DNA of 63,581 bases, filler included, from Craspedostauros australis (lineage: Eukaryota), in assembly GCA_030167865.1 (NCBI GenBank). It is 8 parts of 8 records of this genome, joined end to end, with 100 filler letters (N's around TTAATTAATTAA, not from the genome) between each part and the next. Parts side by side here need not be neighbours in the genome. Positions count along the whole stretch, not along the records: positions 19,810 to 30,334 come from JALAGF010005417.1; 7 more parts are not named here. One strand, 5' to 3'. The translations under genes were made by a program, and so were the position numbers. The notes below the pieces were generated by a model that saw only the letters and a program-made list of their open reading frames with translations, did not search any database and was not told where the DNA came from. The stretch's first letter is position 1; each line of letters begins with the position of its first letter. Below, piece after piece: positions 10,429 to 55,694 of this stretch.

Positions 10429-10605
10429 TGTCAAACAGGAATACGTGTGAAACGGTTAAAACGAGGTTAACGTGCGAACACGGGTATCGCCCAACGACGG
10501 GAGAACAGTGTACTCTCTGACGGTCCTACACGACCCTAAAACCCTTATAATCTGAATCCTTTGGGTTTCCAACCCTCAATGACAATGCATGTGTGTGTTA
10601 ACTTG
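10429..10605 (+). repeat. 5' LTR of element A
   Basis: Starts TGTCAAACAGG, has TATA-like cttataa at about 10544-10550, and is about 95% identical to 17192-17365. Confidence 0.9.
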
Positions 10606-15500: not shown

Positions 15501-17020
15501 GCAATCATGGGTATCTTGACAAAGTCGTACCCTCGATTCCTAACACATGCGTTGGCCATCGACGCAGAAACAGGCACTGACATGTGGTGCAAGGCAATCG
15601 AAAAAAAGATGAAAGCAGTGCGCCCTGCCTTCGACATCAAAGAGACTGACACCCCCAACCCAATCGGGCACCAGCCGACGTTCAGAATGCATACCTGAAT
15701 GCACCATGCAGAGAACGAATATACACACGATGCGGGCCCAAGTTCGGGTCCGATCAAGCCAAGATCGCCGTCATCTGTCGGGCCTTATATGGCCTGAAGT
15801 CCAGCGGAGCCGCTTGGCGAGCGCATCTGGCTGAGACACTACACGATTCGATGGGATATACATCCTGCCGCGCTGATAGCGACATCTGGATGAAGCCAGC
15901 TGTGGCAAGCGATGGGTCAGAGTAGTATGAATACGTGCTTGTGTATACAGACGACATCCTTGCGGTGTCGAAACAACCCCAGCGCATCCGAGATGCAATC
16001 GGCTCACACTTCTTCCTCAAACCGAGTTCCATCGGCCCTCCTACTACTTACCTTGGCTCCACTATTGCTCCATACCACATTGACTCTGATGCAACACGTC
16101 CCATATGGAGCATAGGATCATGAGCATACATACGAGCCGCCATCAAGATCGTAATGAAATGGCTCACCGACTGGCAAGGGCGCCAAAAGACAAGGGCACC
16201 CAGCGTGATACCGAACGGATACCGACCCGAATTGGATGCAACACCGTTGTGCAATGCAGAGGAGATGACATTCTACCAGCAGCTGATTGGGATCCTGCGC
16301 TGGACTGTTGAACTGGGTTGAATCGACATCTGCTGTGAAACATCCATGATGTCCTCATATTGTGCTGCGCCACGCACGGGCCACATGCGAACGCTCTTCC
16401 ACATGTTTGCCTATTTGAACTCACACGATCGTTCTCGTCTTGTCTTTGATGATGCATACGTTGACAAACCTGCTGTGATACAACCGGAGTGGGGCGACTT
16501 CTATGCCAACACCCACGAACAGATACCGAAGGACATGCCACCACGTGGAAAGGAGGTCCAGATGACTTGCTTCGTTGATGCTGACCATGCTGGCGACCAG
16601 GTGACGTGACGATCGCGCACTGGAGTCCTACTGTACCTGAACTCATCGCCCATCCTATGGCACAGCAAGAAACAAAACAGCATCGAGACATCCACGTTCG
16701 GCAGCGAGTTCACTGCGCTCAAGGTAGCGACGGAGATCGTCATCGGCATGCGATACAAACTGCGTATGATGGGCGTCCCTATAGACGGCCCCACCGACAT
16801 GCGCGTCGACAACCAAAGCGTCGTATACAACGCCTCACTCCCCGCATCACAGCTACGAAAGAAAGCCAACGCCAATGCATATCATTTCGTCCGAGAAAGC
16901 ATCGCGGCGGGTGTGATGACTGTCTCATACAAGCCATCAGAAACCAATCTCGCCGACATGCTCACAAAGCCACAATCGGGACCAAGACGAACCCTTCAGG
17001 CACAATGTGTTTTATTCTAA
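12557..17020 (+). pseudogene. pol: pol pseudogene (protease, integrase, chromo-like segment, RT, RNase H) of element A
   Basis: Same frame as gag after the TGA. Protease ELDSHADTCCFG about 12625; integrase YADTM..IPDDSKE..NQNRAEATIRE; RT ADVQNAYL, RALYGLKSSG, YTDD at 15944-15955; RNase H FVDADHAGD, STFGSEF, DNQSV, NLADMLTK. Stops at 13952, 14330, 15923, 16319, 16607, among others. Confidence 0.93.
14831..15545 (-). mobile_element. Solo LTR of a second copia family nested in element A pol
   Basis: Termini TGTTGGAA...TTCCTAACA, CATGCG duplicated on both sides (14825-14830, 15546-15551), and removal restores RHALAID in frame. Its minus-strand start matches the LTR start at 53728. Confidence 0.9.
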
Positions 17021-17191
17021 CATACAGACTGCGCGGCAGTACCCATGGATGGTCCGCCACGGATCCAATCCGTGGTGGATGGGATGAGCGCCCTGTGGTG
17101 CCCACGCATGGGGCATGCACCAGGTACATGCCATGTGAAGCGAAAATGTGACGATCCGACAGTCAGCAAAGCCACAGCGACTCGAGGGGAC

Positions 17192-17365
17192 CAAACAGGG
17201 ATACGTGTGAAACGGTTAAAACGGGGTTAACATGCGAACACGGGCATCGCCCAACCACGGGAGAACAGTGCACTCTCTGACGATCCTACACGACCCTAAA
17301 ACCCTTATAATCTGAATCCTTTGGGTTTGCAACCCTCAATGACAATGCATGTGTGTGTTAACTTG
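17192..17365 (+). repeat. 3' LTR of element A
   Basis: Follows the PPT; lacks the initial TGT present in the 5' LTR. Confidence 0.9.
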
Positions 17366-17897: not shown

Positions 17898-18766
17898 TGT
17901 TGGCAAGTTCCGCTCACGGTAACCTACGATCGTGGAAGATGGTGTTGGTTGATAGTCGTCTGTTTGCTATTTCATTACTTGGCTACTCCGATCCTCTCGG
18001 TGTACGCCCGTTCTCTTGCCCGATGCTCTTGGTGCTTCAATCTGTTTCGTAGATTCGGGCTCCGACTAGGAGTCGGTACGCGAGATGCTCTCTCGCTCTT
18101 CTCTCTTTACTCTCTCTCTCTCAACATCGTGTACTTGCGCTACACGATACCTCGTGTTCGATGCGTACTCCGCATTCGACACTTCGTTCATTCAGTACTG
18201 GCTCCTACTCCATGAGTACTCGCCATTTGAAGTTCACCTTCTGTATCCATGATGCTGATTCTCTTCGGTCATCGGATCTTCGCCTCCTGCTCTGACTTGG
18301 AGACAGATGTCGACGTGGTGACATGATGACATCCTGTCGACGTCAGTAAGTGTCCTTCTGCTCTCCAGATGTCACGTTCCATTGGTGATGCAGGAGTTTG
18401 TCAGATGATATCGTCATCTGAGGTTTAGTTGGGAAGTACCTCGAGATTCTCTTGGTACCATTGATGGATGGACGGACGATCTTTCAATTCTCTCAGAAAT
18501 CGTCGATTGCAAATTTCCTCCAGAAATCTTGCTCTTTTTCGTGTGTTCCATTTCTGCTGTAATTCTGACGAATCACAGCATACTATCGACACGAGTGTAG
18601 TTATACCGTCCAAGTGCGTATGAGAGAATANNNNNNNNNNNNNNNNNNNNNNNNNNNNNNNNNNNNNNNNNNNNNNNNNNCGTCCAAGTGCGTATGAGAG
18701 AATAGCGGGTGAACGATGCACATATACGCGTACATCTTGACATATACTCACATGTACATCTCGACA
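17898..18766 (-). repeat. 3' LTR of copia element B (LTR family B, copy 1)
   Basis: Minus strand reads PPT GGAAGGG (18767-18773) then TGTCGAGA...TTGCCAACA. Near-identical sequence occurs at 29830-30334 and 53448-53529. Confidence 0.9.
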
Positions 18767-19709: not shown

Positions 19710-19753
19710 NNNNNNNNNNNNNNNNNNNNNNNNNNNNNNNNNNNNNNNNNNNN

Positions 19754-19765
19754 TTAATTAATTAA
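19754..19765. other. Artificial contig spacer TTAATTAATTAA (also at 30379, 51420, 53392, 55639, 59470, 61924)
   Basis: Identical 12-mer with stops in all six frames, flanked by N runs seven times. Confidence 0.97.
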
Positions 19766-19809
19766 NNNNNNNNNNNNNNNNNNNNNNNNNNNNNNNNNNN
19801 NNNNNNNNN

Positions 19810-22442
19810 GATACGCCTCTCTGCGGCGTTCTGGTGCTGGTGCTCCGGCTCGCTCTGATGATCAGCGATGGAGTACTGTCGGAGGATGTCTTGGACCTTG
19901 AATCCGATCTCGGATTTCGCGTTATCGGACATCAGGAGGTCAGGAGCTCCATGACACCGGATGAAGTCTTGGAGAGTGGAAGCGACTTGCTTCTCCGATG
20001 TCATGGGGAATCCTGCGGTGAAGCGAGAATCCACGGCCACGTATACTTGCATCATCGTGCTGCCACCATGGCCTGGCACACCATCGTCGTGTGCAGGTGT
20101 GTCAGAGAACAACGTGTCCATGGCAACAGTCTTGTGGAGTCTGTCCACGTTCGCGGCAGGGAATCTGGTCTTGAAGTGCTTCCTCATGGTGAACCGCTCG
20201 GAGGTGCGGTACCATTGGGATGTGCACTTGAGAGTGTCTTGGACTCTTCTGGCCGAGATCCATCCAAAGTACGGACGGAGGGCCTCATAGTCGATCTTTG
20301 GCTTCACGCGAGTGATAGCGCCCTGCTGTGAGGCACCGGTCTCACTGGTGAACACTTCGATGGAGTCCGGTGAGTGGACGCCGTCGTCTGGGGCACCATC
20401 GGAGGTCTCGTCCAGCAAAGTGAACTCGTGGTCGAGAGTGGATGGGTCCCACTCTTCGTCGGCAGTGAAATCCACGTGAGGGTACGTGTCAATCTCCTTG
20501 CGTGTGAGAGGTCTCATGTCCATGTAGGACAGGTCCTGTCGGATGGAGAGAGGGATCACATGCCCATCAGGCACGATGATTGTCTGTCTCCCTCCAGGGA
20601 GTTCGCGAGGACGCTCGTTGACATCGAGACCGAATGCACCGAGCTGATTCGTCGAGTGAATCGTCTTGCCCTTGCCATAGAGGGCGTATTGGTGAAACTT
20701 CGCAATGATAGGTCCCTCGGTGGACATGACGAGTCCAGCGACCGTTCCAATGTCCAGGTTGACGATTGCGGTGTCTCCAATTCCGCTGATGTCGGTGGTA
20801 TGGTTGGTACGGCTGATGATAGTCACATCATCGCCTGCCAATCCTCCATTCGCACCGCTGTCGATCAGGGAACCGGCCTTCGCAACATCGGTCTTGTTGA
20901 AGCTGTATTGCAGGACTATGGCCTGAACAGCATGGTAGATCTTGCCCTGGATGGCGACTTCGTCGGAAGTGTTGGTGTTGGTCGTGGCATTGGCCAACAT
21001 GCGCTTGATGGCATCGCCGGGGAGTTCGTCAGAACCGGCGCTGCCTGAGGTTGAGGTGGACTTGGTCTGCCCACCACCCCCATTGCCAGTGGCGGATGTC
21101 TTGTTGGCCTGTCTGTTCGATGCATCCCTGGTGTACTTGGGGTCCCAAGTACCCTTGGACTGCATGTGAGCCTTCTTCTGATCCCAGGTCATTTGCTTCC
21201 ATTCGTTGTCTGGGATTCGCTTGTTCGTGTTCTTGTTCTTGGATTGGTTGGTCTTGTTCTCGTTGTTACTTGCTTCCTTGTTTGTGTTATTGACTCTGCG
21301 CTTGGCCTTGTTGCGTGGGATGCGCAGGTCATTGCGCTGTGCGGATCTGCGCACAACACCAAGGAAGGCATCGAAGTCCAACCTGAAGTTGGTCTTTCCT
21401 GTCGCNNNNNNNNNNNNNNNNNNNNNNNNNNNNNNNNNNNNNNNNNNNNNNNNNNCGCCAAGTTGCTCTGGAGAGCATCGGCGTCGTCAAGGGAACGGAA
21501 GAGGTCAGCATCAGGGGTGATGGCCTCCTTGAGCCACTGAAGCTTCCAGTCCTCAGAGACAGGTGCATCCTGGATCTCTTCGAGGTCGTTGATCTTGCTG
21601 AGCCAGCTGTTCACGAAGGCTTCGCGGCTGCTGTTCCACGAGTGGTTCATCTTGAGGTTCCGGATCTCCTCTTGGATCAGCTGAGCCTTGTTGGCTGCAG
21701 CTACTCCGGTTGCATACTCTTCACGGAGCATGGTATACACCCCATGACCGTTCTCGTCATCGGCGTATGCCTGGAGACAGTTGCGNNNNNNNNNNNNNNN
21801 NNNNNNNNNNNNNNNNNNNNNNNNNNNNNNNNNNNNNNNNNNNNNNNNNNNNNNNNNNNNNTCTTGGGTCGGGAGGTACTCGGGGTCTACGACGTTCTTC
21901 ACACCGTGCGCTGCAGCGGTGGCTCGGAGACGTCGGTCGAAGACCATGAACTGGTCATCACTCTTCAGGATCGGATAGTCGCTGAGGTTTCGCTTGATGC
22001 CCTTGTCGAAGGCAGCGGCTCCATCAGAGACAGGTTCAGTAGGTGGTGGTGGTGTCACCATGGATGACATGGTGGGTTCGGGTGTCGGTGTGGAGGCTTC
22101 CACGCGTTTCTTGAGTTCAGCTCTCATGAAGCTCTGGAGCCTCGCAGCATTCAGGTCAAGCCAGACGGAGTCGTCGTCGTCAGCTTGCGCGTCATACCAC
22201 ATTGGGAGTGCGAGGATCTTGCGAATGTGCAACGCAGTCAATCGACATGAGTATGGGTCTCCCGAGGTGGGAGTGATGTCGCGATGAAGACCGTCGAGGT
22301 CTTCCTTGGTGAGGAAGGTGAGGTCGTCAACATTCTCCACCGCTGCGTCGATGATAACGCGGCGATGGTCGGAGTCGTCGGAGATACCCACGGCCTTGAG
22401 GACGTGGTTCAGGATGGTGATGGGTTCGGTGGGTTCTGTCAT
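19810..22442 (-). CDS. gag-pol: Gag-protease-integrase polyprotein of copia element D (3' truncated by contig end, gapped)
   Basis: ATG 22442. Gag FDKGIKRNLSDYPILK..ATAAAHGVKNVVDPEY; protease LIDSGANGG; integrase MDTLFSD..LMSDNAKSE..SEPEHQHQNAAERRI. Frame changes occur only across N gaps. Confidence 0.9.
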
Positions 22443-22444
22443 CT

Positions 22445-22612
22445 TGTTCGGTTCGGTTCGTCACGGAGAAGCGGATACGCTGTGCTCGGTGTGTTCGTTT
22501 GCGATGCCTTTGGTGGCTCTTGCTGTTGTTCGGTTCGGTACGGAGAAGCGGATACGCTGTGCTCGGTGTGTTCATGTGCGCTGCCTTAGAAGGCTCTTGT
22601 TCTTGTTCGGTT
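22445..22612 (-). repeat. 77-bp tandem repeat (about 2.2 copies) in the leader of element D
   Basis: acggagaagcggatacgctgtgctcggtgtgttc occurs at 22463 and 22540, with a partial third copy. Confidence 0.85.
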
Positions 22613-22690
22613 CTTGCTTCACGTCGTCACGTGATGCAATCGGTTCGGTGCTGATGGGATCAGCTCGGTGGGTTGGAGGGGGGTTCACTC

Positions 22691-22718
22691 AGTCAGGTCA
22701 GGACGTAGTGCTTGCGAC
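22691..22718 (-). promoter_or_regulatory. Putative primer-binding site of element D (complementary to an internal tRNA segment)
   Basis: Immediately follows the minus-strand LTR end AGATTAACA. The plus strand reads AGTCAGGTCAGGAC-G-TAGTG-CT-TGC-GA-C, resembling tRNA positions about 14-39. Confidence 0.6.
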
Positions 22719-23098
22719 TGTTAATCTGTTATCTCGTTATCGTACACAGCGAAATCACACGATTCCTTCAAGAGAGATCAAGTTAATAGAGCTAAACTAG
22801 CAGTTAGGCTAAGGAAGGATTTCCTGGAACACATGACTCGTTTTCCCACGAATCGGTCTGAACCACGTTTTGGACATAACCACGTTTGGAGCAGGCACAA
22901 GTCTTCGAAGAACCTCTTTGGAGTCCAGGACCCATGGAAAAAGGGTCCCAATGACTGGGTCATCGGAACCCCTCCCCACCAACAACTTGATGCCAATACA
23001 AGACTGCTGGATCCACGGTACAGTTCCACGTGGGAATACACGCAAGATGACCTTCGCCCAGCTTCCAACTTGATGGAGGGAAACTTTCCCCTGGTACT
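22719..23098 (-). repeat. Probable 5' LTR of element D (outer boundary unresolved)
   Basis: The minus-strand end ...AGATTAACA at 22719 precedes the PBS, leader and gag. No second copy is available to define the start. Confidence 0.55.
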
Positions 23099-23237
23099 NN
23101 NNNNNNNNNNNNNNNNNNNNNNNNNNNNNNNNNNNNNNNNNNNNNNNNNNNNNNNNNNNNNNNNNNNNNNNNNNNNNNNNNNNNNNNNNNNNNNNNNNNN
23201 NNNNNNNNNNNNNNNNNNNNNNNNNNNNNNNNNNNNG

Positions 23238-23407
23238 CACTAATCTCATAATCCGCACGTTTCTTCACCATCTACCAGTATTCTAAATTGACTACTTGTG
23301 GAACAGAAGACTCTCGTCCGGATCTCTTGCCAGTCAAGCCTCTGCCTACAGCTAAAGAACAGCCAACAAGACAACAGCCATTACGTTTGGGCTCTATTAG
23401 ATTAACA
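23238..23407 (+). repeat. Probable 3' part of the 5' LTR of element E
   Basis: Ends ATTAGATTAACA, the same terminus as the element D LTR, followed by GT and a gap, then an ORF start at 23496. Confidence 0.55.
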
Positions 23408-23495
23408 GTNNNNNNNNNNNNNNNNNNNNNNNNNNNNNNNNNNNNNNNNNNNNNNNNNNNNNNNNNNNNNNNNNNNNNNNNNNGACCTCTGCAAG

Positions 23496-26400
23496 ATGAC
23501 TCGTACCAACCGCATCGTTCCCTCCACCAGGGGACCCTCCAAGAGGAGCCCAGGTGATTTGACCGATACCTTCGAGACCGACCCCAAGGACCCGAAGGAC
23601 CCCAGCCTCTCTGTCCTCCTCAATGACACGGCAGGCGCCCTGATGGATGGACCTTCGTCACTCTTCCCCACTGAGATGGGAAAGAAGTTCATCGAAGCAA
23701 CCTTCGGACACCCCATCATCGTCGACGCGTGGAACCGAAAGGAGAAGACCCACGACGACGAAGTGGTGTGCCATGTCCACAAGACCACCTGGGACGCATT
23801 CACCAACCTCAAGCAGTACTTTGGGATCAGTATCGAGACCTCCATGGTTTTTGGCCTCTTCAAAACCAGCGCACTCGCGATCAAGAAGACACTCCCCGAA
23901 CTACTGACCACCATCCACGAAGGGACCCCAACCATGGTCCCTGGAGCCATCATGATCAACTTCACGGACCCGGACGACGTCGCAAGACACTTCGAGACAG
24001 GACTCCTCGTCTACCACATCGCCGAGTGGGTAGGATTTATCAAAGTCAACAGAGACTCATCCCTCGACCAAACTCTCAATAGGATGTTCATCGACGCAGA
24101 AAGCACCGAGAAAACGATGATGGCCTTCGACCGATTCGAAAGACGCGGCAGGCGCACGCACAATGGTGAGTGGCTAACTGCTGTCGTGGAGTACAAGACA
24201 TCCCTTTCTAACCCCACCTCCATCAGCACCTCGACCAGATCTGAAACCTCAATCCTCAAGACAGGACGAGACAGCGACAGCCGCCCAGGAGGTACCCCCT
24301 CTGGGTTNNNNNNNNNNNNNNNNNNNNNNNNNNNNNNNNNNNNNNNNNNNNNNNNNNGTCGACGCGTGGAACCGAAAGGAGAAGACCCACGACGACGAAG
24401 TGGTGTGCCATGTCCACAAGACCACCTGGGACGCATTCACCGACCTCAAGCAGTACTTTGGGATTAGCATCGAGACTGCCACGGTTTTTGGCCTCTTTAA
24501 AACCAGCGCACTCGCGATCGAGAAGACACTCCCCGAACTACTGACCACCATCCACGAAGGGACCCCAACCATGGTCCCTGGAGCCATCATGATCAACTTC
24601 ACGGACCCGGACGACGTCGCAAGACACTTCGAGACAGGACTCCTCGTCTACCACATCGCCGAGTGGGTAGGATTTATCAAAGTCAACAGAGACTCATCCC
24701 TCGACCAAACTCTCAATAGGATGTTCATCGACGCAGAAAGCACCGAGAAAACGATGATGGCCTTCGACCGATTCGAAAGACGCGGCAGGCGCACGCACAA
24801 TGGTGAGTGGCTAACTGCTGTCGTGGAGTACAAGACATTTCTCTCTAACCCCAATGCCACCAGCACCTCGACCAGATCTGAAACCTCAATCCTCAAGACA
24901 GGACGAGACAGCGACAGCCGCCCAGGAGGTACCCCCTTTGGGTTCTCATCCCTAGCCGGTGGAGCCGCCCCGGAGTGCACCTCGGGCACCCTCCCTGACG
25001 AAACCCAACTCTCTGGTATTGCTGAGCGTGGATCCATGACGACATCCCCAACAGCAACCGATGCCTACAGCGACAACCCAAATGCTGCAGGTACCAGCCC
25101 CAGCAACGACAACGACCAGCACCCGGACACCAACGAAACTACCGGACCAGCCACCAAATGTGGACCCGATGGAAGGATCAGAATGTCCCCCAACGTTTGC
25201 CCCACGACTATTGACGGTCACGGTCGCAGACCACCTGAAGCCAAGGCAGTAACCTTCGCCCATGGGACGACTACCAGAGATCCAGGAGACACTGCCACAT
25301 CTCGGATGACCCACCAGGAGAAAGGTGGGAACCGTCCAGCGAGCAACCGAAGCTCATGGGACCATCATGGTACCATGGGCAACCCACCACCTCACGGTAT
25401 GGCCAGCTACCATAACCACGACGGACGCGAACCAACAATCCGAAACCCAACCGCCAACACAGGAGCGAACCATGGAACAGATCATCTGCATCACCAAGAC
25501 CCTGGACCCAATGGTAACCATGGTCACACCAACGACGGACCCCATGGATACCCACCCCGCATGGATACCTTCCACGCACATAGGAGCCCACGCCCAGCAT
25601 ACCCACATCCACATCCAGGAGGATTCCCATCCATCGGAATCCCTGTCCACATGGGATACCCCCCAAACGGAAATGTAGGCTACCCGACTGCCCTGAGAGC
25701 TTTCATGCCTGTTGGAATTCCCCAACCTGGGTACCCCCCAAGACCACCAGGACACGGGAACCAAGCGACAGGTCATGGCGCGAACCGAATGGGACCAGAC
25801 CCACACGTCTTAGGTCCTGACACCCACCATGGGCACCACGCATTTGGGGACGCACCCCATCAGGGAGGCACCCATGGTGATACCCCAACTCCTCCCGCCA
25901 AGCTGACGAAGCGGCGCCCCAACCCGAACGCCACGAGCACCAGTCCCAATGACGACCACAACCTGCACAGCATCACCAGCAAAGCTACTGGATCAACCAA
26001 CGAGCGCGGACCCGACGAAAGGAGCGGACTGTTCCTCGACGTGAACCCCGCTACTATTGGCGGACATGATCGCAGGCCACCCGACGCCAAGGTGGCAACC
26101 TTCACCCCCAAGACAACCACCAGGGACCCAGGAGATCCTGCCGGACCCCGAGTGACCCACTCAGAGAGCAGTGGGAACCGCCCCGCGGACAACCGGAACT
26201 CATGGAACCATCATGGTACCATGGGCTACCTGCCACCCCATGGGATGGCCAGTAACCATGGCAACGGCAGACGCGAACCGACGAACCAAAACCCAACTGC
26301 GAACGCAGGCATGAACCATGGAACGGGACAAATACACTGCCATTTTCTCAATCCCTATGGCATCTACAGATATGACAACACAGTGTGCCATGGATACCCA

Positions 26401-29400
26401 CCTAACATGGGGCCTCCTCACGCATATGGCCAACCACATACGGCGTATGCGCAACCCCACCCAGAAGGATTCCCGCCTATTGGAGTCCCTGTTCGCATGG
26501 GATACGTGCCAAATGGAAGTGAAGACAACCAAACAGCACCAGGTGCCTTCGCACCTATTGGAAACCTCCAATCAGGGTACCCTCCAAGACTAACTGGATA
26601 CGGACACCAGGCAACCGACCATGGAACCCACCATGGAGGGCCAGGGCCAGGACCGCACATTGAGGCACCCAGTACTCGCTGTGGGCAACATGTACCTGGG
26701 TACTCTCGCCATCAGGAAGCCAACCATGGTGAAACCCCGTCTGTGTCAGCCAAGCTGGCGAAACAGCGACCCACCCTGGACTCCATCAAGTTCACGGGCG
26801 ATGCGGTTTCCCTCCAAGTGGTGAACCACCAAACCCGGACAAGCGGAACTGTCCTCGACACGGTCTCCACGGAACATTGGGCATCATTCCCCACATCAGG
26901 AACAGGAAGACAGTATCGAATGCCTGATGAAAACATGATCATCAACCTGGAGATGAGGGATGCATTGATGACATTCTACGTGATTCCTATCATGAAAGAT
27001 GACGAGGACCTCCCTCCGCATGACATCACCTCGAAACAGGAATGGAACCCACCAGACCACCAGGGTGGGCTTGAATGCAACGTCCCCATGAGTTGCTATC
27101 TCACCAAGAATCCGAACGGAGGCAACAAGACCTTCGATTGGAGTGGTTTCCATGATGACCAATACGACCTTTCGCCAGCAACCCCAGAGGAGAATGGTCT
27201 GGCCCCGACGCATGACGATGCCGGAACCCCACCGCATGCAGCACCCACCATCGAAGAGGAACCTCCCGCGACAGGGGAGCTCATGATGACAGCCGGCTCC
27301 ATCGAACCAATGGCACACAAGCCCCATGAGGAGGACGACTCCAATCCAGGGCCATCGCACCTTCTTTGTTCGTCGGGACCACCATCCTACCAACAAATGG
27401 ATGACGGCCCCGAAGAAAGGGGAGGGAATGGGAGGAACAGGCAAGAGAAGCGACCCCCCTTTACCATCAACGCCAGAAAGGACATCCCTTGGAGGATCAA
27501 TTCCCACAGGACGAACCAATCTAAAATCAAGACCATCTGCAAACGACAGGACGCTGTGGAGAACCCCACGCATGGATCGAACCTGGGCGCTGCTAGGAGT
27601 GCCACGAAGTCAAAAACCGGGCTACGACATACACTGATGGACCTCGCACTACCCATTGATGGACCAGCAATCATGATGAGAGACAACAAGGCAATGTTAC
27701 TGAACACCACGGCCCCTCCATTGCCCTTGAAGAAGAAACACTGCTCCTTGGCATTCCACCAGGTCCGAGAGTGCATCGCCGCAGGTATCATCGTACTCTG
27801 GTGCATTACTTCAATCAACAACACCGCTGACATGCACACCAAACCACTCTCCAAAACCCCCTTCCGTCACATCGCATCGAAGACGGTCCTCAGGAACTTA
27901 ATATACGAACCAGGGCCCTACCATGAAATCGTATCCCCCGCGAAACCGCGCGCCAAGGTCACCAGAGCGGAAGACGACCCCGACCTGCCAACCGATCGAC
28001 CAGAGGAGCAATCATGCCACAGCAAGAGACGCACCGATACAAGAAACATCAATGTCATCCGGTACCAACAAACACGCATGGACATCAGCACATCGTCAAC
28101 TACCCTCTGGCTCGCGAGAACTCGACGGGAGCCGACCCCTCTAGAGAGGTCCCGGAGAAGGCCACCCAGACCTGTCACACCGATCGCAATCACGTTGGCC
28201 GAATCCAACCGACGGGCCCCACCGAGTTTTGTTGTCGCATGCGACATGCCCGATATCCTTGCCACGACTAACAATTACGAGCCGAGTAATGGACCACGTG
28301 ACAATTTTCGTCACCAACCCGTCGACGCATCACCAACGGATCCCGCAACAGAATCCAGCCCACTGCCAGACACCAATTATTCATTGACATCGGGAAGTTT
28401 GACGCCTCGGATTTTCATCACGCCGGAACACGTTGCCAGCTCTCAGGTACTGTACCCTACAAGGAAGAAGGGAACCTTCCGTGGAATTGTCACAGGCTAC
28501 AGTGGTCACAGGGCCTGTATCACCTGTACCAAGGGCAACAGGAAGGTCCATGCTGACACCATGTCCTATGCAGACAGCCAATCCGTATTTCCGCTTTCCC
28601 TCTATGAATATCTCGATGAAGACCTCAAGGATACCGAGGCCCCCAGCATCGCGATCGCTGATGGACAGTATTTCTACCCAGCTGACGATGGCGCATGGGC
28701 AGAGAAACCCAGCATGGACAGATCCACGAATCTGAGATCATCGACCTGCCACTTCTTCAGTTTGAGGAAGAACTGCATTCCTGTCATCCTCGCACGAGCG
28801 AAGCAGACACAAAGTATCCAGAACCAGAGCGACCCCATCGCAGTGAACTTGGAACGGACACAGGCAGCACTCAAACAGGATCCTAGTCTACCCATCACCG
28901 AGGATGAGATAGTCAACGGCATCCCTGAAATCGATGACCGACAACCCTGCCTCAAGGAAGGAGAGACAGTCAATGGGAAATTCCTATCAGAGGTTCCAGA
29001 AGGGTACATCGATCAGGAACCCGCAGCAACCAGCGCAGCCAAGCCAAGGGAAACCACTGACACAGAAGCTGCAATTGCACAAGGAATTGTCACCAGCTCA
29101 CTGCCCATCCCCAGGCCATCAGTCCAACGCTCCCAACACACGTCGCCACCACCCAAGATCTTGGCCGGTACTCATGATAGGGGAGTCTACATTGACAAGT
29201 ATAGACCACTCCAGAAGGCCCCAGATCCTTCCAACAAGAAGGACATGCCAGAGTCAGAATCTCTGGGCATCGAGGAGTCGACACCCATCTACCGACCAGA
29301 CAAGATCAACCCAAACCAGGCGCATACCCAAACCACCCATGCCAGCAACCACATCGACGACTGTGGCGACTCCCCAGATGAAAGAGAGACCCTTGATGAA

Positions 29401-29829
29401 TCAGTGGGAACACCATTACCACCCAGGAGCCCAGAGATCATGGTGAGGATCTTCGATGCTCCCAATCAGCCCAGGAAGATCGTGACGAGCCCATCTCTAC
29501 GCCCAGCAACCAGACCAAGGCTGGGAGAGGAGCATTTGGATATGCACCCAATGCCATTGACCCCGCAAGACGGGTCGGTGACCGGAAGATCGTTCTCCAT
29601 GACGGAACCAGGTGCCAAGGAGGCCACCAACCCAAGGAAGAGGACCAGAATGGACCTTCCCATGCCAGAGCCATCCCCATCCCCAAGGCGACTCCAATCC
29701 TGCAACGTCATGCCAAGGGCACGAACGACAGCCATGAACTACATGCCCAACCATCTGTCCATCCTTGACCCTACCAACAAGATCAGAGCAGTCCCCCGCA
29801 CTGATCCCAGATCGGACCAAGCCACCCAA
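23496..29829 (+). mobile_element. Element E: internally deleted copia derivative encoding one long chimeric ORF (gag-like N-terminus, duplicated Pro/Gly/His region, protease tail, RNase H tail, unknown C-terminus)
   Basis: Stop-free frame 24400-30003, with its 5' part at 23496-24307. GRQYRMPDENMIINLEMRDAL..LPPHDITSKQEWNP (about 26900-27050) aligns with the post-protease segment of element D. LRHTL..PIDGPA..DNKAM..LKKKH..AFHQVRECIAAG..NTADMHTKPL (27622-27860) is a copia RNase H C-half. No RT or integrase motifs. Confidence 0.8.
25075..26772 (+). repeat. Diverged in-frame 846-bp (282-aa) tandem duplication within the element E ORF
   Basis: NPNA..TTTRDPGD..SGNRPA..HHGTMG..HGYPP..GYPPR..AKLxKxRP occurs twice, starting at 25075 and 25921. 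Confidence 0.9.
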
Positions 29830-30334
29830 TGTTGGCAAGTTCCGCTCACGGTAACCTACGATCGTGGAAGATGGTGTTGGTTGATAGTCGTCTGTTTGCT
29901 ATTTCATTACATTGGCACTCCGATACTCTCGGTGTCCGTTCGTTCTCTTGCCCGATGCTCTCGGCGCTTCAATCTGTTTCGTAGATTCGGTCTCCAACTA
30001 TGAGTCGGTACGCGAGATCCTCTCTCGCTCCTCTCTGTATTTTCTCTCTCTCAACATCGTGTGTTCGTGCTACACGATACTCCGTGTTCGATGCGTGCTC
30101 CGCATTCGACACTCCGTTCATTCAGTACTGGCTTCTACTCCATGAGTACTTACCATTTGAAGTTCACCTTCAGTACCCATGATCTTCATGGGTCATCGTA
30201 TCTTCGCCTCCTGCTCTGACTTGGAGACAGCTGTCAACGTGGTGACATGCTGACATCCTGTTGACGTCAGTAGGCGTCCTTCTGCTCTCCAGATGTCACG
30301 TTCCATTGGTGATGCAGTAGTCTGTCAGATGATA
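29830..30334 (-). repeat. LTR family B, copy 2 (partial), inserted into the element E ORF
   Basis: TGTTGGCAAGTTCCGCTCACGG... is colinear with 17898-18410 and runs to the contig end. Confidence 0.92.
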
Positions 30335-31081
30335 NNNNNNNNNNNNNNNNNNNNNNNNNNNNNNNNNNNNNNNNNNNNTTAATTAATTAANNNNNNNNNN
30401 NNNNNNNNNNNNNNNNNNNNNNNNNNNNNNNNNNTCGACTCGACATCGACCCATCACAGGAGCTGACACAACAGAGAGAAACGCTCCTGCAGCATCGCCA
30501 GGATACTGTCGGACTATGTTCCTCTCAGCAGATCAAACCCACACGATCAATCCTTGCACAGCGGATGGGTCGGCCTCGGCAGGTCAGTCTGAATGAAATG
30601 TTTCTCGGAACTGATCCGTTATGCAGCATGTGATCATCGTTGCCCTTCCTGTATCTATTATGCAAACGCCCCATGCCATCCAAACCGCATACATGATCTT
30701 GCAAAAAGTACATGATCTTGCATTCATTCGCTATGCTATCCCATCCGTGATCATGGCTATGGCATGCCATGCCATGCAGATACAGACGGTAGTCATGGCT
30801 TGGCGACAACAGAGGCCGAAGACCACGTATTGGTCAGAAAACAGGGCTGTCCCCACGTGTTGCGTACATACGACCTGCGAAACAGGAGCACATGATGTGG
30901 CTAAAACAGAGATCGTTCGGGCAGATCCCTTGTCCTCACAAAATCAAAATCTGAGCAATCAGAGAGAAATCACACGGAGAGCCACCAACGGTTGTTCACG
31001 ATCAACCAACAACCTTCAACGATCCAACATCAACTAGCCAACACCAATAATCAGCCAACATTCAGCCAACCAACCATCAAG

Positions 31082-33720: not shown

Positions 33721-36700
33721 ATGACGTCGACGATGACAACCCAGTTGGACGTCGAGATGCAAGAGTCCGCAAGATCACAGCTGAATGCCCAACTCGGTTC
33801 GAATAGCGTTGCGGCTCCATCTTCCCACCAGGATATCGATGAATCGTCCACAAATTCCGAGGAAGAAGGGTTGGGGGTGCTGTCCGGATCTGGTCAGTTC
33901 TCTGTCGAGTCGTCGGACCAGCACACCAGCACGCGGATGGGCATCAAGCAACGGGCCGCCATTCACGAACGACGGACGCTGGCCAAGAAGGAGACCAGGA
34001 TCATTTGGATGCTGCGTCTTTTCGTCGCCGTCGCTCTCATCTTCTTCGCCCTCAGCGCTTCCTTGAGCGTGTACTATGTCGTGTCCGACCAGGAGAACGA
34101 CGACTTCCGAGAGCAGTTCAGCTTCCATGCAGCGCGTGTCATTGAAGCATTCAACATCGCCATCCAGGCCAAGTTTGCCGCGGTTGACAGTCTCTCGGTG
34201 ACCTACACATCCCATGCTCTGTCCACTGGATCGACGTTCCCCAACGTCACGCTGCCGTACTTTGAGTACAGCGGAGCTGCCACGCGCATTGCTGGCGATG
34301 CGATCGTCGTATATTTCGCGCCATTGGTCATGCCCGAACAAACGGATGAATGGCTTTCCTACATTAACACTCAAGAGAACGAGATTCTGAGATCGATTCG
34401 GAACGAGCAGGCCGAGAAAGAGGTTCAGGATGAACTTTACGGACACCAGCAGATCCCGATTGGGTATGCAGAGGACTCGTCGGAGGACCACCTCATCCCG
34501 CCAGAGATTTGGAACCTGTCGGACGAATACAACAAAACCAAGGTACGCCCTCGTTGGTGTCTGTCCGTCTGGCTGGCTGTTACTCAGCTCCGCCATCCAT
34601 CATATCTTGCGTCGAAGCTCAAGTTCGATCAGCATCGCAGATGGTCATGTCATGAACTTCTGCAGAGAGTGTGCAATCGTGTGGACGGTGATCGGCCTGT
34701 TTTGCACGATTCGAATGGATGTGTGTCGCTAACCCATTCTCTTGTATTCCTTCTCACGCGCTTTTCTCGGATGGGATGCACAACACTACTGCACACTTGC
34801 ACCGTCCTCGTACAACACGGCCACACCATCACGCTTGCGCTGAGCAGTCGGATGGATACTTTTTCCCAGTATGGCAGGCGACGCCTCTGTTGCCGGAGAA
34901 CGCGCAGAGCATCGGGTTGGATCTGGCCCATTCATCTTTTGCGGAGGACTCTCTTGGCGTCGTGCGCAACTATTCGCATGCGTCGTTTGACATAATGACT
35001 AACTTGGAAGATGTGGACGGCAACGACATGAGCGCAGCAGAGATGTACAATCTCTACCTCCAATTTGGGCAATACAGGCACAGCGCGGAAAGCTACAAGT
35101 CGGACCCGATGACATCGCTTTCATTTCCAGTGTTCGACACCTTCGGGCCAGACAGAAAGGTTACGGGTGCGCTCTTCACAACCATGTACTGGCGCTTGTT
35201 ACTCCGCAACATATTCTCGGACAACGTCAAAGGGTTGCTTTGCGTGCTGAGCAATACGCAAGGACAGTTCGCGTCATATCAGATCGATGGATCCGACGCG
35301 ACCTTCCTCGGCCTGGATGATTTCCACAGCGCCGAGTACGAAGAAATGTACGAGGAAATAGATGTCGCGCAGTACATGAGAAACAACGCGAGCGCGGAAA
35401 CGAGGACGTTCACATCCGTCGATCTCAGCACCGCATTCATCAACTACAAGATCCGTGTATATCCAACGGATGGGTTTAAGGATGTGTACGTGACCAACGC
35501 TGCCCAAGTCGAAGCGATATCAATCGGATCGACCTTCATCGTGGCCATGATCATCTTCATCATCTACGATTGCTGCGTGGAACGGCGTCAACGCATCGTC
35601 TTGGACCGTGCCGTAAAGTCCACTGCGTTGGTGTCGACGCTGTTCCCCGAAAATGTCCGCGAGCGGGTCATTAACGATGGTGACAAGCGCAAGGGAAGAG
35701 GCAAAGGATTGGTGGGAGCTGCACCCCAGTCAAATCGGGTGGCCTTCAAGGCTTCCAACGTTTCTGCCAATCAGATGATCGGGGGGCCGCCGATCGCTGA
35801 GAAGTTCCCCGAAACCACCGTCTTCTTCGCCGATCTGGCAGGCTTCACCAAATGGAGCTCCAGCCGAGAACCGGAGCAGGTCTTCCAGCTTCTGGAGACC
35901 ATGTTCAAGGCCTTTGATTCGATTGCGTTGAAATGTGGTGTTTTCAAAGTCGAGGTGAGTCCTGTCCATGTGATAAGTGGCTGGCAGCCTTTCTGTATTT
36001 GCGACTCTTCACTTTTGCTGGACATGACGAACTCGTTCTCACATCTCCAGAGAGAGCATCATTTCTATTTCTCTGGTTCGTGTGCGTTGTGAATGGTGAA
36101 TTCCTTCTCGTTTCTCTTCTTCTCTGTGTCTTCTTGCTCTGTTGATTTGCAGACTATCGGAGATTGTTATATGGCCGCCACAGGCCTTCCAGGTAAGTGA
36201 ACGGAGTCGCGTCGCCATGGATTGAAGGCCTTGATGTGATCGGGCCGCATTCTTTTCTGCGTGGTGATGGTGCATACTTTTTTCTCAACGAATTCCTCGC
36301 ATGAATCTCCGTTACTCCGCTCTACTTGCAATCTCTGCGACCCCATGCTCTTCTATTATATATCCCTGCATTCGCAACACAACGACGCAGAACCACAAAA
36401 GGATCACGCTGTCCGGATGGCGCGGTTTGCTCGGGACTGTTTGCACAAGATCGCGCAGCTTGTTGACAATCTGGCCGAGCAGCTTGGGGACGACACTCGT
36501 AATTTGACCTTGCGAATTGGAATGCATTCTGGCGGTGTCACGGCCGGTGTGTTGCGCGGAGACAAGTCGCGATTCCAGCTGTTCGGCGACACCGTCAATA
36601 CGGCTTCGCGTATGGAGAGCACCGGGATTCCCAGCCGCATTCAGGTATCCCAAACCACTGCGGATTCTTTGATATTGAACGGCAAGGAAAGGTGGTTGGA

Positions 36701-37482: not shown

Positions 37483-39498
37483 CTACGACTCGCCCAACGA
37501 CCCTGGATACAGGATGGTCAGCACACCGACACGAATGGAATACAGGATGGACCCGAACGTGACGAAGAGAAAGACGAAGCCACCGATCTTGGACGACCGC
37601 GAATCATGCTTGAGATTCATGAGCTCATCTTTCGTGTGCGGCAGACAGCACACGAAGAGAATGCCGGACAATTGCAGGACGGTGGTGAGGATGGTGAGGT
37701 TGGTCATGCCGACGTAATCGCCTTGCTGGATGGTGGTTTTGGAGACATCCCAGATGTTGAGTAGGTTGGCCGAAATGGCCGAGCTCAAGGTGAGGGCGGA
37801 GTTGTTGACGGTCGTGAACATGGCGTACGAGGCGCCCTCGCTGCCCGTGGGACACAGATGCACCATCATGATGGTGGTGGGCAGGAATTGGATGCCGGCG
37901 ATGAATTCGGCGAAGACGTCATCACCCAGGGCGAACCAGAAGGGCGGGATGCCGAAGGTGGTGCCCTCGATGAGGAGGAGCTGCAGGAAGGAGAGAAATC
38001 CGTTGAGCATGGTGCAGGCGATGTAGATGGTGCGCCAGCTCCACTTGATGAAGTAGTACTTGTAGGTGACGACGCCCACGTAGAGGAGAACGAGGCTGAC
38101 GTTGAGGAGGATGTTGAGCTGGAAGGAGGTGAATCCCAACCCCGTGACAAGGAACTCCCTCCACGCGCCGTTGCCGACCTGCAGCACGTTGTAGATGTAG
38201 ACGAAGGCCAGCGGTTGCCAGACGGCGCGTGAGCAGACCGTGTTCCATATCTCCGTGCATTGCTGGCGCACGGAGGGGATGGTGTGTTTGTGATGCGGCG
38301 GTTCGTTGTCCTCCGCGGCAAGGGGTGATCTGTCGTGGGCGGTATTGTTGGCGCTGGCCACGACGACCGTGGATTCCTGAAGGAACCAGATGAAGGGCAG
38401 CGTGCACAGAGGCAGCATGGTGAGAAGGAAGACGATGGCAGGCGCACCCATGGTCTTGTAGAGGATGGTGGAGAAGGGAGACGCGATCATGGACCCGAAG
38501 AAGCGGTAGGAGTAGCACGTGGACTGCGTGTTGCCTCTGGCATGGACCGGCTCGAGCTTGGCCTTCTCCGCCACGAGCGAGTCGCCCATGACATCCGCCA
38601 TCCAGAATCCCGTCCCGAAGAGCAGGAGAGACGACGCCAGCTTGGGTATGGGCGGCGCCTCTGCAGGTGGGATGGGATGGCCGTCGTCATCGAACTGCTC
38701 GAAGGAGAGGTCTGAGGTCATGGAGAGCCAGAGCATCGCGGCCGAGGCCATGCACCAGCCGATGACCATGTATGATTTGCGGCGCTTCCCGCAGAAGGGG
38801 ACGGTGTCGCTGAGGAAGCCGAAGAAGAGCTTGAAGCTGGCAGGCAAAGAGCGCACGGCGGACACCATGGTCTGCTGCGCCTCGGAGGCATGAATATCGC
38901 GGGGATACGCGTTGATGAAGGGACCCGACAGGCCCTGCAGCAGCCCCACCATGAAGTAGCACATGGGAATGGCAATGTTCTCCAATCGCAGCAGCTGGCA
39001 GGATCTGGGAATGGCGGGTGGGAAGAAGAAGTCGTGCAGGTAGGATTGCTCCTCTCGTGACAACTTGAGGATTTCCTGGTCGACGAAATGATCGAAGCCG
39101 AGGTCCGACTCATCTGTGTCTTCGCTGTTGACCATGGTCAGCGGTCGCAGCTCGATGTTCTCGCTTGTTCGAGAGTTGGCAGACGACGACTGGCTTTGCG
39201 TCTGGGACAGCGATCCAGCAGGCGTGATCACTTCTGCGCTCGCACCTCCCGTCTTGTCCAGGCTCAGGCTGTGCATCGTGCCTCTCCTTCTTCTGTTGCT
39301 GCTACTGTTGCTGCTATTGTTGCTGGTACTGTTGCTTGTGCCGGTTCGTCTGTTCCGAATGGTCCTTCCCCTGTGCTCGTAGTTGGATCGTCCACCACTT
39401 GCGCTGGCACTGGCACTGGCACTTGCACCTTGCGCTGTAGCTGTGTTGGCACTCTTTGTTGTAGCACTCCTGTGGATCGGCAGCAGACTGTTTTGCAT
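37483..39498 (-). CDS. BT1-family folate-biopterin transporter (MFS-like)
   Basis: 671-aa intronless ORF with about 12 TM helices; LPASFKLFFGFLSDTVPFCGKRRKSYM, ADVMGDSLVAE, LCPTGSEGASYAMFTTVNN. Confidence 0.9.
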   Translation of the reverse strand: MQNSLLPIHRSATTKSANTATAQGASASASASASGGRSNYEHRGRTIRNRRTGTSNSTSNNSSNSSSNRRRRGTMHSLSLDKTGGASAEVITPAGSLSQTQSQSSSANSRTSENIELRPLTMVNSEDTDESDLGFDHFVDQEILKLSREEQSYLHDFFFPPAIPRSCQLLRLENIAIPMCYFMVGLLQGLSGPFINAYPRDIHASEAQQTMVSAVRSLPASFKLFFGFLSDTVPFCGKRRKSYMVIGWCMASAAMLWLSMTSDLSFEQFDDDGHPIPPAEAPPIPKLASSLLLFGTGFWMADVMGDSLVAEKAKLEPVHARGNTQSTCYSYRFFGSMIASPFSTILYKTMGAPAIVFLLTMLPLCTLPFIWFLQESTVVVASANNTAHDRSPLAAEDNEPPHHKHTIPSVRQQCTEIWNTVCSRAVWQPLAFVYIYNVLQVGNGAWREFLVTGLGFTSFQLNILLNVSLVLLYVGVVTYKYYFIKWSWRTIYIACTMLNGFLSFLQLLLIEGTTFGIPPFWFALGDDVFAEFIAGIQFLPTTIMMVHLCPTGSEGASYAMFTTVNNSALTLSSAISANLLNIWDVSKTTIQQGDYVGMTNLTILTTVLQLSGILFVCCLPHTKDELMNLKHDSRSSKIGGFVFLFVTFGSILYSIRVGVLTILYPGSLGES

Positions 39499-55594: not shown

Positions 55595-55694
55595 NNNNNN
55601 NNNNNNNNNNNNNNNNNNNNNNNNNNNNNNNNNNNNNNTTAATTAATTAANNNNNNNNNNNNNNNNNNNNNNNNNNNNNNNNNNNNNNNNNNNN

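Follow-up and report, generated by a model that had tools for sequence, protein, structure and literature searches.

Within a 63,581-nucleotide window of the Craspedostauros australis genome (GenBank assembly GCA_030167865.1), the window being the whole stretch of DNA analysed, the plus strand carries a very long open reading frame. With a probability of about 0.55, we read this region as a non-autonomous element that descends from a Ty1/copia LTR retrotransposon through internal deletion, with a frame kept by selection on the element lineage. The anatomy comprises a probable 5′ LTR, an orphan N-terminus, two copies of a 282-aa repeat, a protease tail, a linker, an RNase H that is catalytically dead, and finally a tail of 642 aa. 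In terms of copies, the reading is based on one locus and a 587-bp second version (97.3% identical; haplotype or paralogue); because the copy is truncated and the assembly fragmented, this is a lead rather than a result. Residue numbers below refer to the ORF protein.

22719..23407, plus strand: putative 5′ LTR, TGTTAATCT...AGATTAACA, with 9-bp terminal inverted repeats
23410..23483, no strand: 74-N run at the expected primer-binding-site position, unreadable
23496..24307, plus strand: N-terminal coding part carried by the left sub-contig (first ATG, 270 codons); the last 587 bp recur at 24358–24944
24308..24357, no strand: 50-N assembly gap with 97.3% identical flanks
24358..25068, plus strand: orphan N-terminal region, residues 1–236, in Gag position, no detectable similarity
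25069..25914, plus strand: repeat R1, residues 237–518, low-complexity, rich in P, G, H, T and N
25915..26760, plus strand: repeat R2, residues 519–800, sharing 52% of amino acids and 69% of nucleotides with R1
26824..27075, plus strand: remnant of the copia protease C-terminus, residues 822–905, polyprotein profile columns 57–134, 8.1 bits
27076..27504, plus strand: acidic, P-rich linker of 143 aa, residues 906–1048, where some 1000 profile columns, those of integrase and RT, are missing
27505..27903, plus strand: degenerate RNase H domain of the Ty1/copia type, residues 1049–1181, hmmsearch, 133 bits
27904..29829, plus strand: open C-terminal tail of 642 codons, residues 1182–1823, hydrophilic, rich in P, T, R and S
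29830..30334, no strand: start of an unrelated LTR/TE terminus (TGTTGGCAAG...), which cuts the frame; identity to 17898–18410

The plus-strand frame is free of stops over 24178..30003, which makes 1941 codons if the 50-N run is counted in, and its N-free part, from 24358 to 29829, comprises 1824 codons with zero stops, against 46 and 60 stops in the other two plus frames. Counted over 24358–30003, stops numbered 1 (the terminal one), 49 and 61 in the plus frames and 39, 41 and 78 in the minus frames. The terminal stop at 30001–30003 lies inside the foreign LTR. The preliminary description had named a possible undoing of its own proposal, namely that the T-poor composition alone could give open frames of this length. 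In 500 composition-matched simulations for each null model, the longest frame reached 325 codons with mononucleotide shuffling and 386, 538 and 506 codons with Markov models of order 1, 2 and 3, respectively. Nine segments of the frame, tested separately, were all open (P_open 0.005–0.06). Simulations and per-segment values together ruled out composition as the sole cause, and the length of the frame is beyond chance expectation. Openness alone is nevertheless unremarkable here, because the neighbouring minus-strand copia element B (19810–22460) also shows no stop over about 876 open codons, its reading frame merely shifting at the N run 21406–21455. The assertion that elements A, B and C and the LINE all carry nonsense mutations thus held for copia element A (10432–17365; stop at 12554–12556), with broken RT frames among other TEs here, and failed for the stop-free element B.

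The window consists of contigs strung together by N44-TTAATTAATTAA-N44 linkers, and the region itself contains N runs at 23099–23236 (138 N), 23410–23483 (74 N) and 24308–24357 (50 N). The sub-contig ends on either side of the 50-N gap (23721–24307 and 24358–24944) differ at 16 positions in 587 bp without any indel. From this alignment, the gap most likely marks overlapping ends, from two haplotypes or from two copies, that the assembly left unmerged. Duplicated flanks also occur at two other 50-N gaps, where 5501–5541 equals 5592–5632 and 51966–52019 equals 52070–52123. The frame had originally been described as starting at 24400 and running without a stop to an LTR insertion at 29830. While its openness was confirmed, the apparent start near 24400 is an assembly artefact, since it arises from the two near-identical sub-contig ends. 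Overlapping both ends preserves the frame because an ATG at 23496 is in frame with 23721, the position that corresponds to 24358. The true frame therefore probably starts at ATG 23496, giving at least 1899 codons. At the other end, the described LTR insertion was recovered at 29830, with 90.9% identity over 514 bp to 17898–18410 and 96% identity over 81 bp to 53529–53449. The 3′ end of the ORF element is missing: the foreign LTR is followed by the contig end at 30334, within a repeat.

Such an assembly raises the question of whether any genomic copy carries the uninterrupted frame at all, or whether the contig merges multiple repeat copies, as a consensus into which they have collapsed or as a chimera of their reads. 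Small sub-contigs were chained across the three N runs, the contig ends inside a repeat, and the overlapping ends at the gap differ by 2.7%, so that at least two versions exist. Against our preferred reading as well, short-read assembly may collapse many copies into a consensus more intact than any of them. However, 24358–30334 is a single N-free stretch of 5977 bp, and a random chimera would seldom preserve the frame across all junctions. Other TEs of this assembly do carry stops (element A and the broken RT frames), therefore the assembler does not polish every repeat open. We regard an assembly product as very unlikely.

The relationship to Ty1/copia elements was apparent from two remnants. 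Against a profile of 16 copia polyproteins (1285 columns), only columns 57–134 (protease tail) and 1135–1261 (RNase H) matched, and they did so collinearly. The protease tail scored 15.3 bits against a protease profile, where none of 718 scored shuffles (of 1000) reached this score (maximum 4.4), and it was 32% identical to element B. Only positions 90–160 of the 194-position profile aligned, and the active-site half with D[ST]G/H was not detectable, although a 'DSI' at residues 806–808 may be a relic of the active site. The profile match and the shuffle test thus bear out a protease region reduced to its tail. No Pfam match to integrase (rve) or RT (RVT_2) was obtained at E ≤ 1, and profile columns 134–1135 remained unmatched.

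RNase H, said in the preliminary description to be present as its C-terminal half only, in fact aligned over nearly the whole domain (residues 1051/1052–1178/1181), with a degenerate N-terminal third. An hhalign comparison with the 16 polyproteins gave a probability of 99.5. In the alignment, Arg1039 takes the place of the first catalytic Asp; Asn1074 stands instead of the catalytic Glu (GSE to GSN), and eight residues are deleted in frame, while the motifs DN and AD..TK are kept. Judged by its residues, the domain is catalytically dead. It retains 16 of 23 invariant columns, compared with 23 of 23–25 in each of the 16 relatives (leave-one-out), and its identity to these relatives amounts to 28–40%, versus 37–62% among the relatives themselves; compared with copia element A of this window, its identity is 40% over RNase H. 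A phmmer search with residues 800–1823 against 1.84 billion representatives yielded 1570 matches at E ≤ 0.001. The 150 listed all fell on residues ~1047–1234, with no homologue outside RNase H among them. Six of seven relatives scanned carried Pfam RVT_2 upstream of the match. Of the features of an autonomous Ty1/copia element, RT, integrase and a protease active site were not found, and the set of four RNase H catalytic carboxylates is incomplete. The order of the remnants, protease before RNase H as in copia, marks the region as a Ty1/copia derivative; together with the lack of RVT_2 and rve matches, their collinearity supports the earlier label of an RT-less, integrase-less copia derivative.

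Upstream of the protease tail, the picture was different from the one first proposed. The N-terminus had been called Gag-like, a designation for which no search gave sequence support; nor is the supposed start of a Gag core, AKQRPTLDSIKFTGD, supported, as it lies just upstream of the protease-tail match. The N-terminal 800 aa gave no GAG family match in Pfam and no similarity to the gag of elements A and B, and a CCHC knuckle was sought in the protein of the element without success. Residues 1–236 had no homologue at E ≤ 0.01 among 1913 candidates of shorter length, and the best ESM Atlas score of the N-terminus (0.83) was below lead level. AlphaFold2 without an alignment was uninformative for the N-terminal 270 aa (pLDDT 32.8). 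Searches with the whole ORF returned no homologue among 5073 candidates of near length (E ≤ 0.001) or 6417 of shorter length. Scans of metagenome contigs gave 18 pattern matches with the ORF and 135 with the R1/R2 alignment, none of them confirmed. Pfam searches with the ORF, its segments, the other plus frame and three antisense ORFs produced nothing at E ≤ 1 bar one chance-level match (0.16), and a PDB sequence search produced no match at E ≤ 1. Like the N-terminal part, the two repeats and the 642-aa tail had no match in the libraries searched.

The 282-aa internal duplication was, by contrast with the Gag assignment, fully borne out: R1 and R2 (846 bp each) share 68.9% nucleotide identity and 149 of 288 aligned amino acids. 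Their comparison, the dN/dS check that had been proposed for the two repeats, gave dS 0.86, dN 0.34 and omega 0.40 (bootstrap 0.29–0.55; 0 of 1000 at or above 1), with off-frame controls of 0.84 and 1.03. Differences were distributed 87/78/121 over the codon positions (chi-square p = 0.0045). The octapeptide NPNATSTS occurs at residues 163 and 521, and the 24 nt that encode it differ at 6 silent positions between the two sites. In the 587-bp copies, 7 synonymous and 9 non-synonymous sites differ (omega 0.37, one-sided p = 0.049). A host-gene codon model favoured frame 1 in seven of nine segments, including all three tail segments, and was neutral for R1 and R2. Selection on the protein, as previously suggested, is thus supported at the sequence level for the repeat region by the omega of 0.40; for the remainder the indications are indirect, namely RNase H decay without a stop, the codon usage and the observation that a neutral divergence above ~2% would break the 1824-codon frame.

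These data also bear on whether the chimera could be a young accident, that is, a recent deletion derivative or a recombinant of co-packaged RNAs with an inherited coding signal and without selection on the chimera itself. Whichever reading is right, the ~2% limit requires the copy to be young or under constraint; element B is just as open, and the omega of R1/R2 could date from the gag of the autonomous ancestor, before the deletions. On the other hand, the RNase H lacks 7 of 23 invariant residues, two of them catalytic, and carries the in-frame 8-aa deletion. Because only 16 invariant columns are kept at 28–40% identity, the domain has diverged far beyond the neutral limit; an autonomous parent could not carry such an RNase H, and much of the divergence would therefore have followed the loss of function, stop-free. 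Furthermore, at least two large deletions and the read-through into the tail all preserved the frame.

The tail adds to both sides. A stretch of about 640 aa without matches had been reported after RNase H, and a tail of 642 codons is indeed present; its composition predicts 12 stops where none is seen, and the host-like in-frame codon usage speaks against an accident. Open tails of 100–300 aa past RNase H nevertheless occur in at least 11 of the 150 listed phmmer relatives, and part of the tail may for this reason reflect what T-poor sequence tends to do in this lineage, and not a new feature under selection. The tail had no usable match in the ESM Atlas, and AlphaFold2 without an alignment was uninformative for residues 1290–1560 (pLDDT 31.0). 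A resemblance to integrase relics noted by eye ('VHADTM') was discarded, since hmmsearch with the polyprotein profile returned no such match at E ≤ 100. On balance we consider a young accident unlikely.

An LTR-like end had also been claimed upstream of the frame, and AGATTAACAGT was located at 23399–23409. It forms an exact inverted 11-mer pair with 22717–22727, framing the putative 5′ LTR (22719..23407), which contains the 138-N run. About 90 bp separate this LTR from the downstream ATG of the ORF, and on its other side is the leader of element B. The sign of its GC and AT skews matches the strand of the ORF and not that of element B, and no TGG follows it on the element B side. Since the window holds no second copy of it, we infer its assignment to the ORF element, which we consider likely; it could instead belong to element B, and neither a 3′ LTR nor a PBS, PPT or target-site duplication is visible.

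The position of this LTR matters for the suggestion that the frame is a domesticated, host-serving gene, e.g., one whose product restricts autonomous copia elements in a dominant-negative manner, by analogy with Ty1 p22. The long maintained frame, an omega below 1, enzyme domains retained though dead and orphan N- and C-terminal regions would fit such a gene, and p22 is reported to be a truncated Gag able to restrict (PMC4599808). Yet the reading is disfavoured because an LTR with terminal inverted repeats adjoins the ATG, a foreign LTR interrupts the frame and the locus is nested among TEs. With this interruption, the complete protein cannot be produced from the locus. The existence of a second, 97% identical copy and the restriction of the 150 listed matches to RNase H likewise count against domestication, which we deem highly improbable.

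If the region is, as we favour, a deleted element under lineage-level selection, it would be unable to copy itself, and its reverse transcription and integration would depend on the enzymes of an autonomous copia partner acting in trans. Selection on the element lineage would preserve its open frame. The likely reason would be use of its own N-terminal, low-complexity protein in cis to join the particle-assembly sites of the partner; alternatively or additionally, an uninterrupted frame might protect the genomic RNA. The present copy would be young, disrupted by the foreign LTR and not itself functional. In Ty1, the Gag-derived p22/p18 of this copia family act on particle assembly of the partner (PMC4599808), and a further study describes a low-complexity, prion-like Gag domain needed for retrosome/VLP assembly (10.1101/2023.02.27.530227). 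By analogy, the two P/G/H/N-rich 282-aa repeats could work like this domain. A stronger version, in which a coding non-autonomous family or a host-tamed descendant maintains a selected, mostly disordered protein of ~1,900 aa that acts on particle assembly of the partner, appears quite doubtful to us. The dead RNase H would then serve as a binding module, and the protein would hitch-hike or restrict dominant-negatively like Ty1 p22. The ORF protein differs from p22 in having no sequence similarity to it, and p22 is the product of an internal transcript of an autonomous element rather than of a deleted derivative.

Non-autonomous LTR elements are usually seen as non-coding (TRIM, LARD) or Gag-only, and we know of no protein-coding 'parasite of a parasite' retroelement described in this protist lineage. 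The kind of element found here is already known; what is unusual is the length of its probably selected coding frame. If correct, a derivative without replication enzymes keeps a long constrained frame, including a dead RNase H and orphan regions, and retroelement 'parasites of parasites' would be able to evolve proteins of their own, offering a handle on how such proteins engage or restrict the particles of the partner. Barley BARE-2 was reportedly characterised by Tanskanen et al. in 2007 as lacking a functional Gag while keeping pol. The ORF element is the reverse, with the pol enzymes gone and the 5′ coding part kept; both would be defective copia elements dependent on an autonomous partner, which for BARE-2 is BARE-1 (cited in PMC13570524). 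The same paper describes non-autonomous LTR families of plants in which GAG/PROT or decayed POL remnants persist; of the 115 such non-autonomous families in sugar beet, 43 contained domain remnants, 15 of these with partly decayed POL. It also covers LARDs, which resemble the ORF element as large (over 4 kb) non-autonomous LTR derivatives without RT and INT. LARDs are described as internally non-coding, with a long non-coding internal domain, whereas the internal region here is one open, coding-like frame throughout. TR-GAG or 'semi-autonomous' plant elements share LTRs, the lack of RT and integrase, an ORF in Gag position and presumed mobilisation in trans. Unlike in these elements, the Gag-position region is unrecognisable as GAG, and a GAG ORF is not the sole coding capacity: the frame does not end after Gag/PR and continues for ~1,900 codons through the dead RNase H and the 642-aa tail. 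Moreover, the present host is not a plant, and the relatives are environmental copia polyproteins.

Autonomous copia elements of the kind represented by the neighbours A and B, together with the diatom CoDi lineages, are close known counterparts of the ORF element, for which 'CoDi-like' would be a tentative label. The protease tail motif and RNase H are shared, and the ORF element differs in lacking integrase, RT and the active-site half of the protease. The term 'non-autonomous' is absent from the CoDi paper (PMC2806351). A sense-strand skew of C over G and A over T is common to the ORF element and both neighbours.

The long open frame of the preliminary description is real, and its classification was right in outline, with several details corrected here. 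Plus-strand positions 24178–30003 form a single stop-free frame, 1941 codons long with the 50-N run at 24308–24357 included. Its product, P0001 (to which residue numbers refer), was translated from 24361 and comprises 1880 aa. Stop counts over 24358–30003 are 1, 49 and 61 for the three plus frames, the single one being the terminal stop, and 39, 41 and 78 for the three minus frames. The coding strand is T-poor (T 16%, GC skew –0.14 to –0.19, AT skew +0.23 to +0.31), which had been raised as a possible cause of the open frame. The longest frames in 500 simulations per model reached at most 325 (shuffle), 386 (Markov-1), 538 (Markov-2) and 506 codons (Markov-3), and composition thus does not explain the frame. 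For nine frame segments the composition-matched probability of being open was 0.005–0.06 apiece, and 12 stops were expected from composition in the final 642 codons.

The start of the frame depends on how its contig was assembled. The relevant features are:

19710–19809, 30335–30434, 51376–51475, 53348–53447, 55595–55694, 59426–59525, 61880–61979: 100-bp linkers, N44-TTAATTAATTAA-N44, with stops in six of six frames
21406–21455, 21786–21861, 23099–23236, 23410–23483, 24308–24357: N runs in the piece 19810–30334, which carries the frame and is itself a scaffold
5501–5632 and 51966–52123: regions of two further 50-N gaps with exactly duplicated flanks (41 bp and 54 bp, both 100%)

The linkers show that the window consists of separate contigs placed end to end, and adjacency across a linker is no evidence of genomic linkage. 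Exact end duplications at 50-N gaps are a signature of unmerged contig overlaps. On either side of the gap at 24308–24357, segments 23721–24307 and 24358–24944 represent the same 587 bp (97.3% identity, 16 differences, zero indels). Together with the duplicated ends at the other gaps, this points most likely to overlapping ends of two haplotypes or two copies that the assembly left unmerged, and not to a true 637-bp tandem duplication; a real duplication, with its period of 3n+1, would break the frame. An ATG at 23496 on the left end is in frame with 23721, which corresponds to 24358, where a codon of the long frame begins. With overlapping ends, the ORF would therefore span 75 + 1824 = 1899 codons, from 23496 to 29829.

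Pfam searches with the whole protein and with its parts gave zero matches at E ≤ 1. A phmmer search of residues 800–1823 against 1.84 billion representative proteins returned 1570 matches at E ≤ 0.001 (236 at 1e-10, 0 at 1e-30). All 150 matches listed covered query positions 248–435 (residues ~1047–1234). Where the relative is a full-length polyprotein, the match lies at its extreme C-terminal end (e.g., 952–1079/1091, 1311–1438/1468, 1307–1415/1429); Pfam RVT_2 was present upstream in six of seven relatives scanned. Judged by this homology, residues ~1047–1234 hold a Ty1/copia RNase H; the relatives are presumably CoDi-like. A copia profile from 16 polyproteins with the RNase H match gave two collinear matches, columns 57–134 to residues 822–905 (8.1 bits) and columns 1135–1261 to residues 1052–1178 (133 bits), and hhalign assigned a probability of 99.5 to residues 1051–1181. 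In a retest of the weak first match with a nine-sequence profile of the protease only, the score was 15.3 bits at profile positions 90–160, a value reached by 0 of 718 scored shuffles (1000 made; maximum 4.4), while the active-site half of the protease gave no alignment to the ORF. Residues 822–905 are accordingly assigned by sequence as the C-terminal protease tail, consistent with the reported absence of the catalytic half. A 143-aa acidic linker stands in for the approximately 1000 columns of integrase, RT and connection between the two matches, so that the description as an RT-less, integrase-less copia derivative was correct.

The statement that only the C-terminal half of RNase H remained had to be modified: alignment with 16 relatives revealed nearly the whole domain, with a degenerate first third. 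Only 16 of 23 columns invariant among the relatives are retained, while in a leave-one-out control every relative kept 23 of 23–25. Two catalytic residues are lost, the first Asp (Arg at 1039) and the Glu (GSE to GSN, Asn1074), and the TRRSxTG strand is gone through an 8-aa in-frame deletion; the DN, KKKH, VRE and AD..TK motifs are still there. Identity to the relatives is 28–40%, compared with 37–62% among them. The lost invariant columns and lower identity indicate that this RNase H is dead and that its divergence outpaced that of the domain in functional elements, with no stop or frameshift arising.

The remaining regions are orphans. The N-terminal region (75 + 236 aa) showed zero similarity to the gag of the neighbouring copia elements A or B and had zero relatives in the protein and structure libraries searched; its designation as Gag-like was based on position and was not upheld by sequence similarity. 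AlphaFold2 without an alignment was uninformative here (pLDDT 33). The reported 282-aa duplication was recovered as R1 (25069–25914) and R2 (25915–26760), with 68.9% nucleotide identity and 149 of 288 aa identical; both are rich in P, G, H, T and N (GRAVY about –1.1). The octapeptide NPNATSTS, encoded at 24847–24870 and 25921–25944 (residues 163 and 521) and in an altered third form at residue 239, marks where the repeat unit starts and hints at a third, partial repeat. Beyond RNase H, the 640 or so unmatched residues noted before proved to be a hydrophilic 642-aa tail, abundant in P, T, R and S; the libraries searched contained no relative, and no fold was predicted with confidence (pLDDT 31). 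Among the 150 relatives listed, at least 11 (P0008, P0012, P0018, P0021, P0034, P0038, P0043, P0046, P0072, P0100, P0142; environmental copia proteins) also continue 100–296 aa beyond the match, so that an open tail is not unique in the lineage, the 642+ codons being by far the longest among relatives examined. Those tails are hydrophilic, of low complexity and unrelated mutually and to the 642-aa tail; they may be a trait of T-poor 3′ regions throughout the lineage, or Pol may truly have a disordered C-terminal extension.

Comparison of R1 with R2 gave dS 0.86, dN 0.34 and omega 0.40 (bootstrap 0.29–0.55, 0/1000 replicates ≥1), against omega 0.84 and 1.03 in the other two frames, and the differences were distributed 87/78/121 over the codon positions (p = 0.0045). 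This constraint may be older than the deletions. The 97% versions differ by 7 synonymous and 9 non-synonymous changes (omega 0.37, one-sided p = 0.049), a small sample, and the two exact NPNATSTS copies by 6 silent changes in 24 nt. Because 3.3% of all possible single substitutions in the frame would introduce a stop, neutral divergence above about 1.7–2.1% would break it (P < 0.05); RNase H divergence since loss of function lies far above that limit. When codon usage was modelled on five host genes in the window, frame 1 was preferred in 7/9 segments; the three tail segments were among these, with in-frame scores of +0.07, +0.23 and +0.13 bits/codon and negative scores off-frame. The repeats R1 and R2 were neutral, and other TE ORFs, as positive controls, scored +0.08 to +0.39. 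Selection on the protein, as suggested before, is thus likely, the evidence covering only part of the frame; most of it is known from one copy alone, and when short reads are collapsed, the consensus can seem cleaner than every actual copy. A further argument had been that neighbouring elements carry nonsense mutations:

10432–17365: element A, decayed copia; 174-bp LTRs, 95.4% identical; TGG directly after the 5′ LTR
22460 down to the contig end (19810), minus strand: element B, copia gag, protease DSGA, integrase start

Element A is indeed decayed (in-frame stop 12554–12556, broken RT frames, RVT_2 fragment 15650–15922). Element B is likewise open, for ~876 codons to the contig end with a sole frame change across the N run 21406–21455, and the contrast therefore fails for B. 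Pfam rve recognised the integrase of neither A nor B. The leader of B contains a 77-bp tandem duplication (22451–22604, 87%).

At its 3′ end, the frame runs into a repeat (TGTTGGCAAG...) starting at 29830, which matches 17898–18410 (90.9% over 514 bp) and 53529–53449 (96% over 81 bp). Since the upstream flanks of these copies are unrelated, 29830 marks the end of a different element that has inserted into the frame, in line with the proposed LTR insertion. The stop (30001–30003) falls inside this repeat, and the contig ends at 30334; the copy is thus truncated and unable to make a complete protein. Upstream, the LTR-like end described previously was found again as AGATTAACAGT (23399–23409), which with an exact inverted partner (22717–22727) bounds the following unit:

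22719–23407: putative LTR, starts TGTTAATCT, ends AGATTAACA; TG...CA form with terminal inverted repeats

It sits between divergent coding regions, the element B leader and ATG 23496. Its skews (GC –0.09/–0.28, AT +0.10/+0.06) agree in sign with the ORF strand and are opposite to the B leader (+0.25, –0.46), and no TGG follows it on the B side, in contrast to element A, where TGG directly follows the LTR. The LTR thus probably belongs to the ORF element, whose expected primer-binding site position is an N run.

Taken together, the element is of copia ancestry, has lost RT, integrase and the protease active-site half, carries a dead RNase H and an adjacent LTR, is truncated by a TE, and retains a long frame that looks coding and shows signs of constraint. 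It probably represents a non-autonomous lineage copied by a partner's enzymes. Its frame would be kept open either because its product is used, most plausibly the N-terminal/low-complexity part, joining particle-assembly sites in a Gag-like manner, or because the unbroken frame shields genomic RNA from decay. The nearest working models come from Ty1, namely the prion-like domain of its Gag and the restriction factor p22. According to PMC13570524, some non-autonomous families retain GAG/PROT (TR-GAG) or POL remnants in decay; of 115 such families in sugar beet, 43 have remnants (28 GAG/PROT only, 15 POL remnants). The element fits this broad kind of non-autonomous LTR elements. It falls outside the TR-GAG definition, having no recognisable GAG and an ORF that runs on, and outside that of LARDs, its internal region not being non-coding. 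The protist literature covered was the CoDi paper (PMC2806351), on copia elements of diatoms, in which the terms 'non-autonomous' and 'deletion' are absent.

Elsewhere in the window, we observed long intron-free ORFs with host-type domains (ankyrin+BTB, AAA_16, guanylate cyclase, BT1 transporter, PPR, SET) and a tandem array:

2432–3922, 5919–9899, 34692–36092, 37483–39501, 40915–43809, 44705–46483, 59733–61931: long intron-free ORFs
46882–50598 (minus), 48579–51419 (minus), 48769–51423 (plus): tandem-array ORFs, no Pfam match

ORF 59733–61931 shows a weak Tc3-type transposase HTH, below the Pfam cut-off. The array (48820–51375, ~2.5 kb, 78-bp register, units 75–90% identical) has several frames on both strands that stay open for hundreds of codons.
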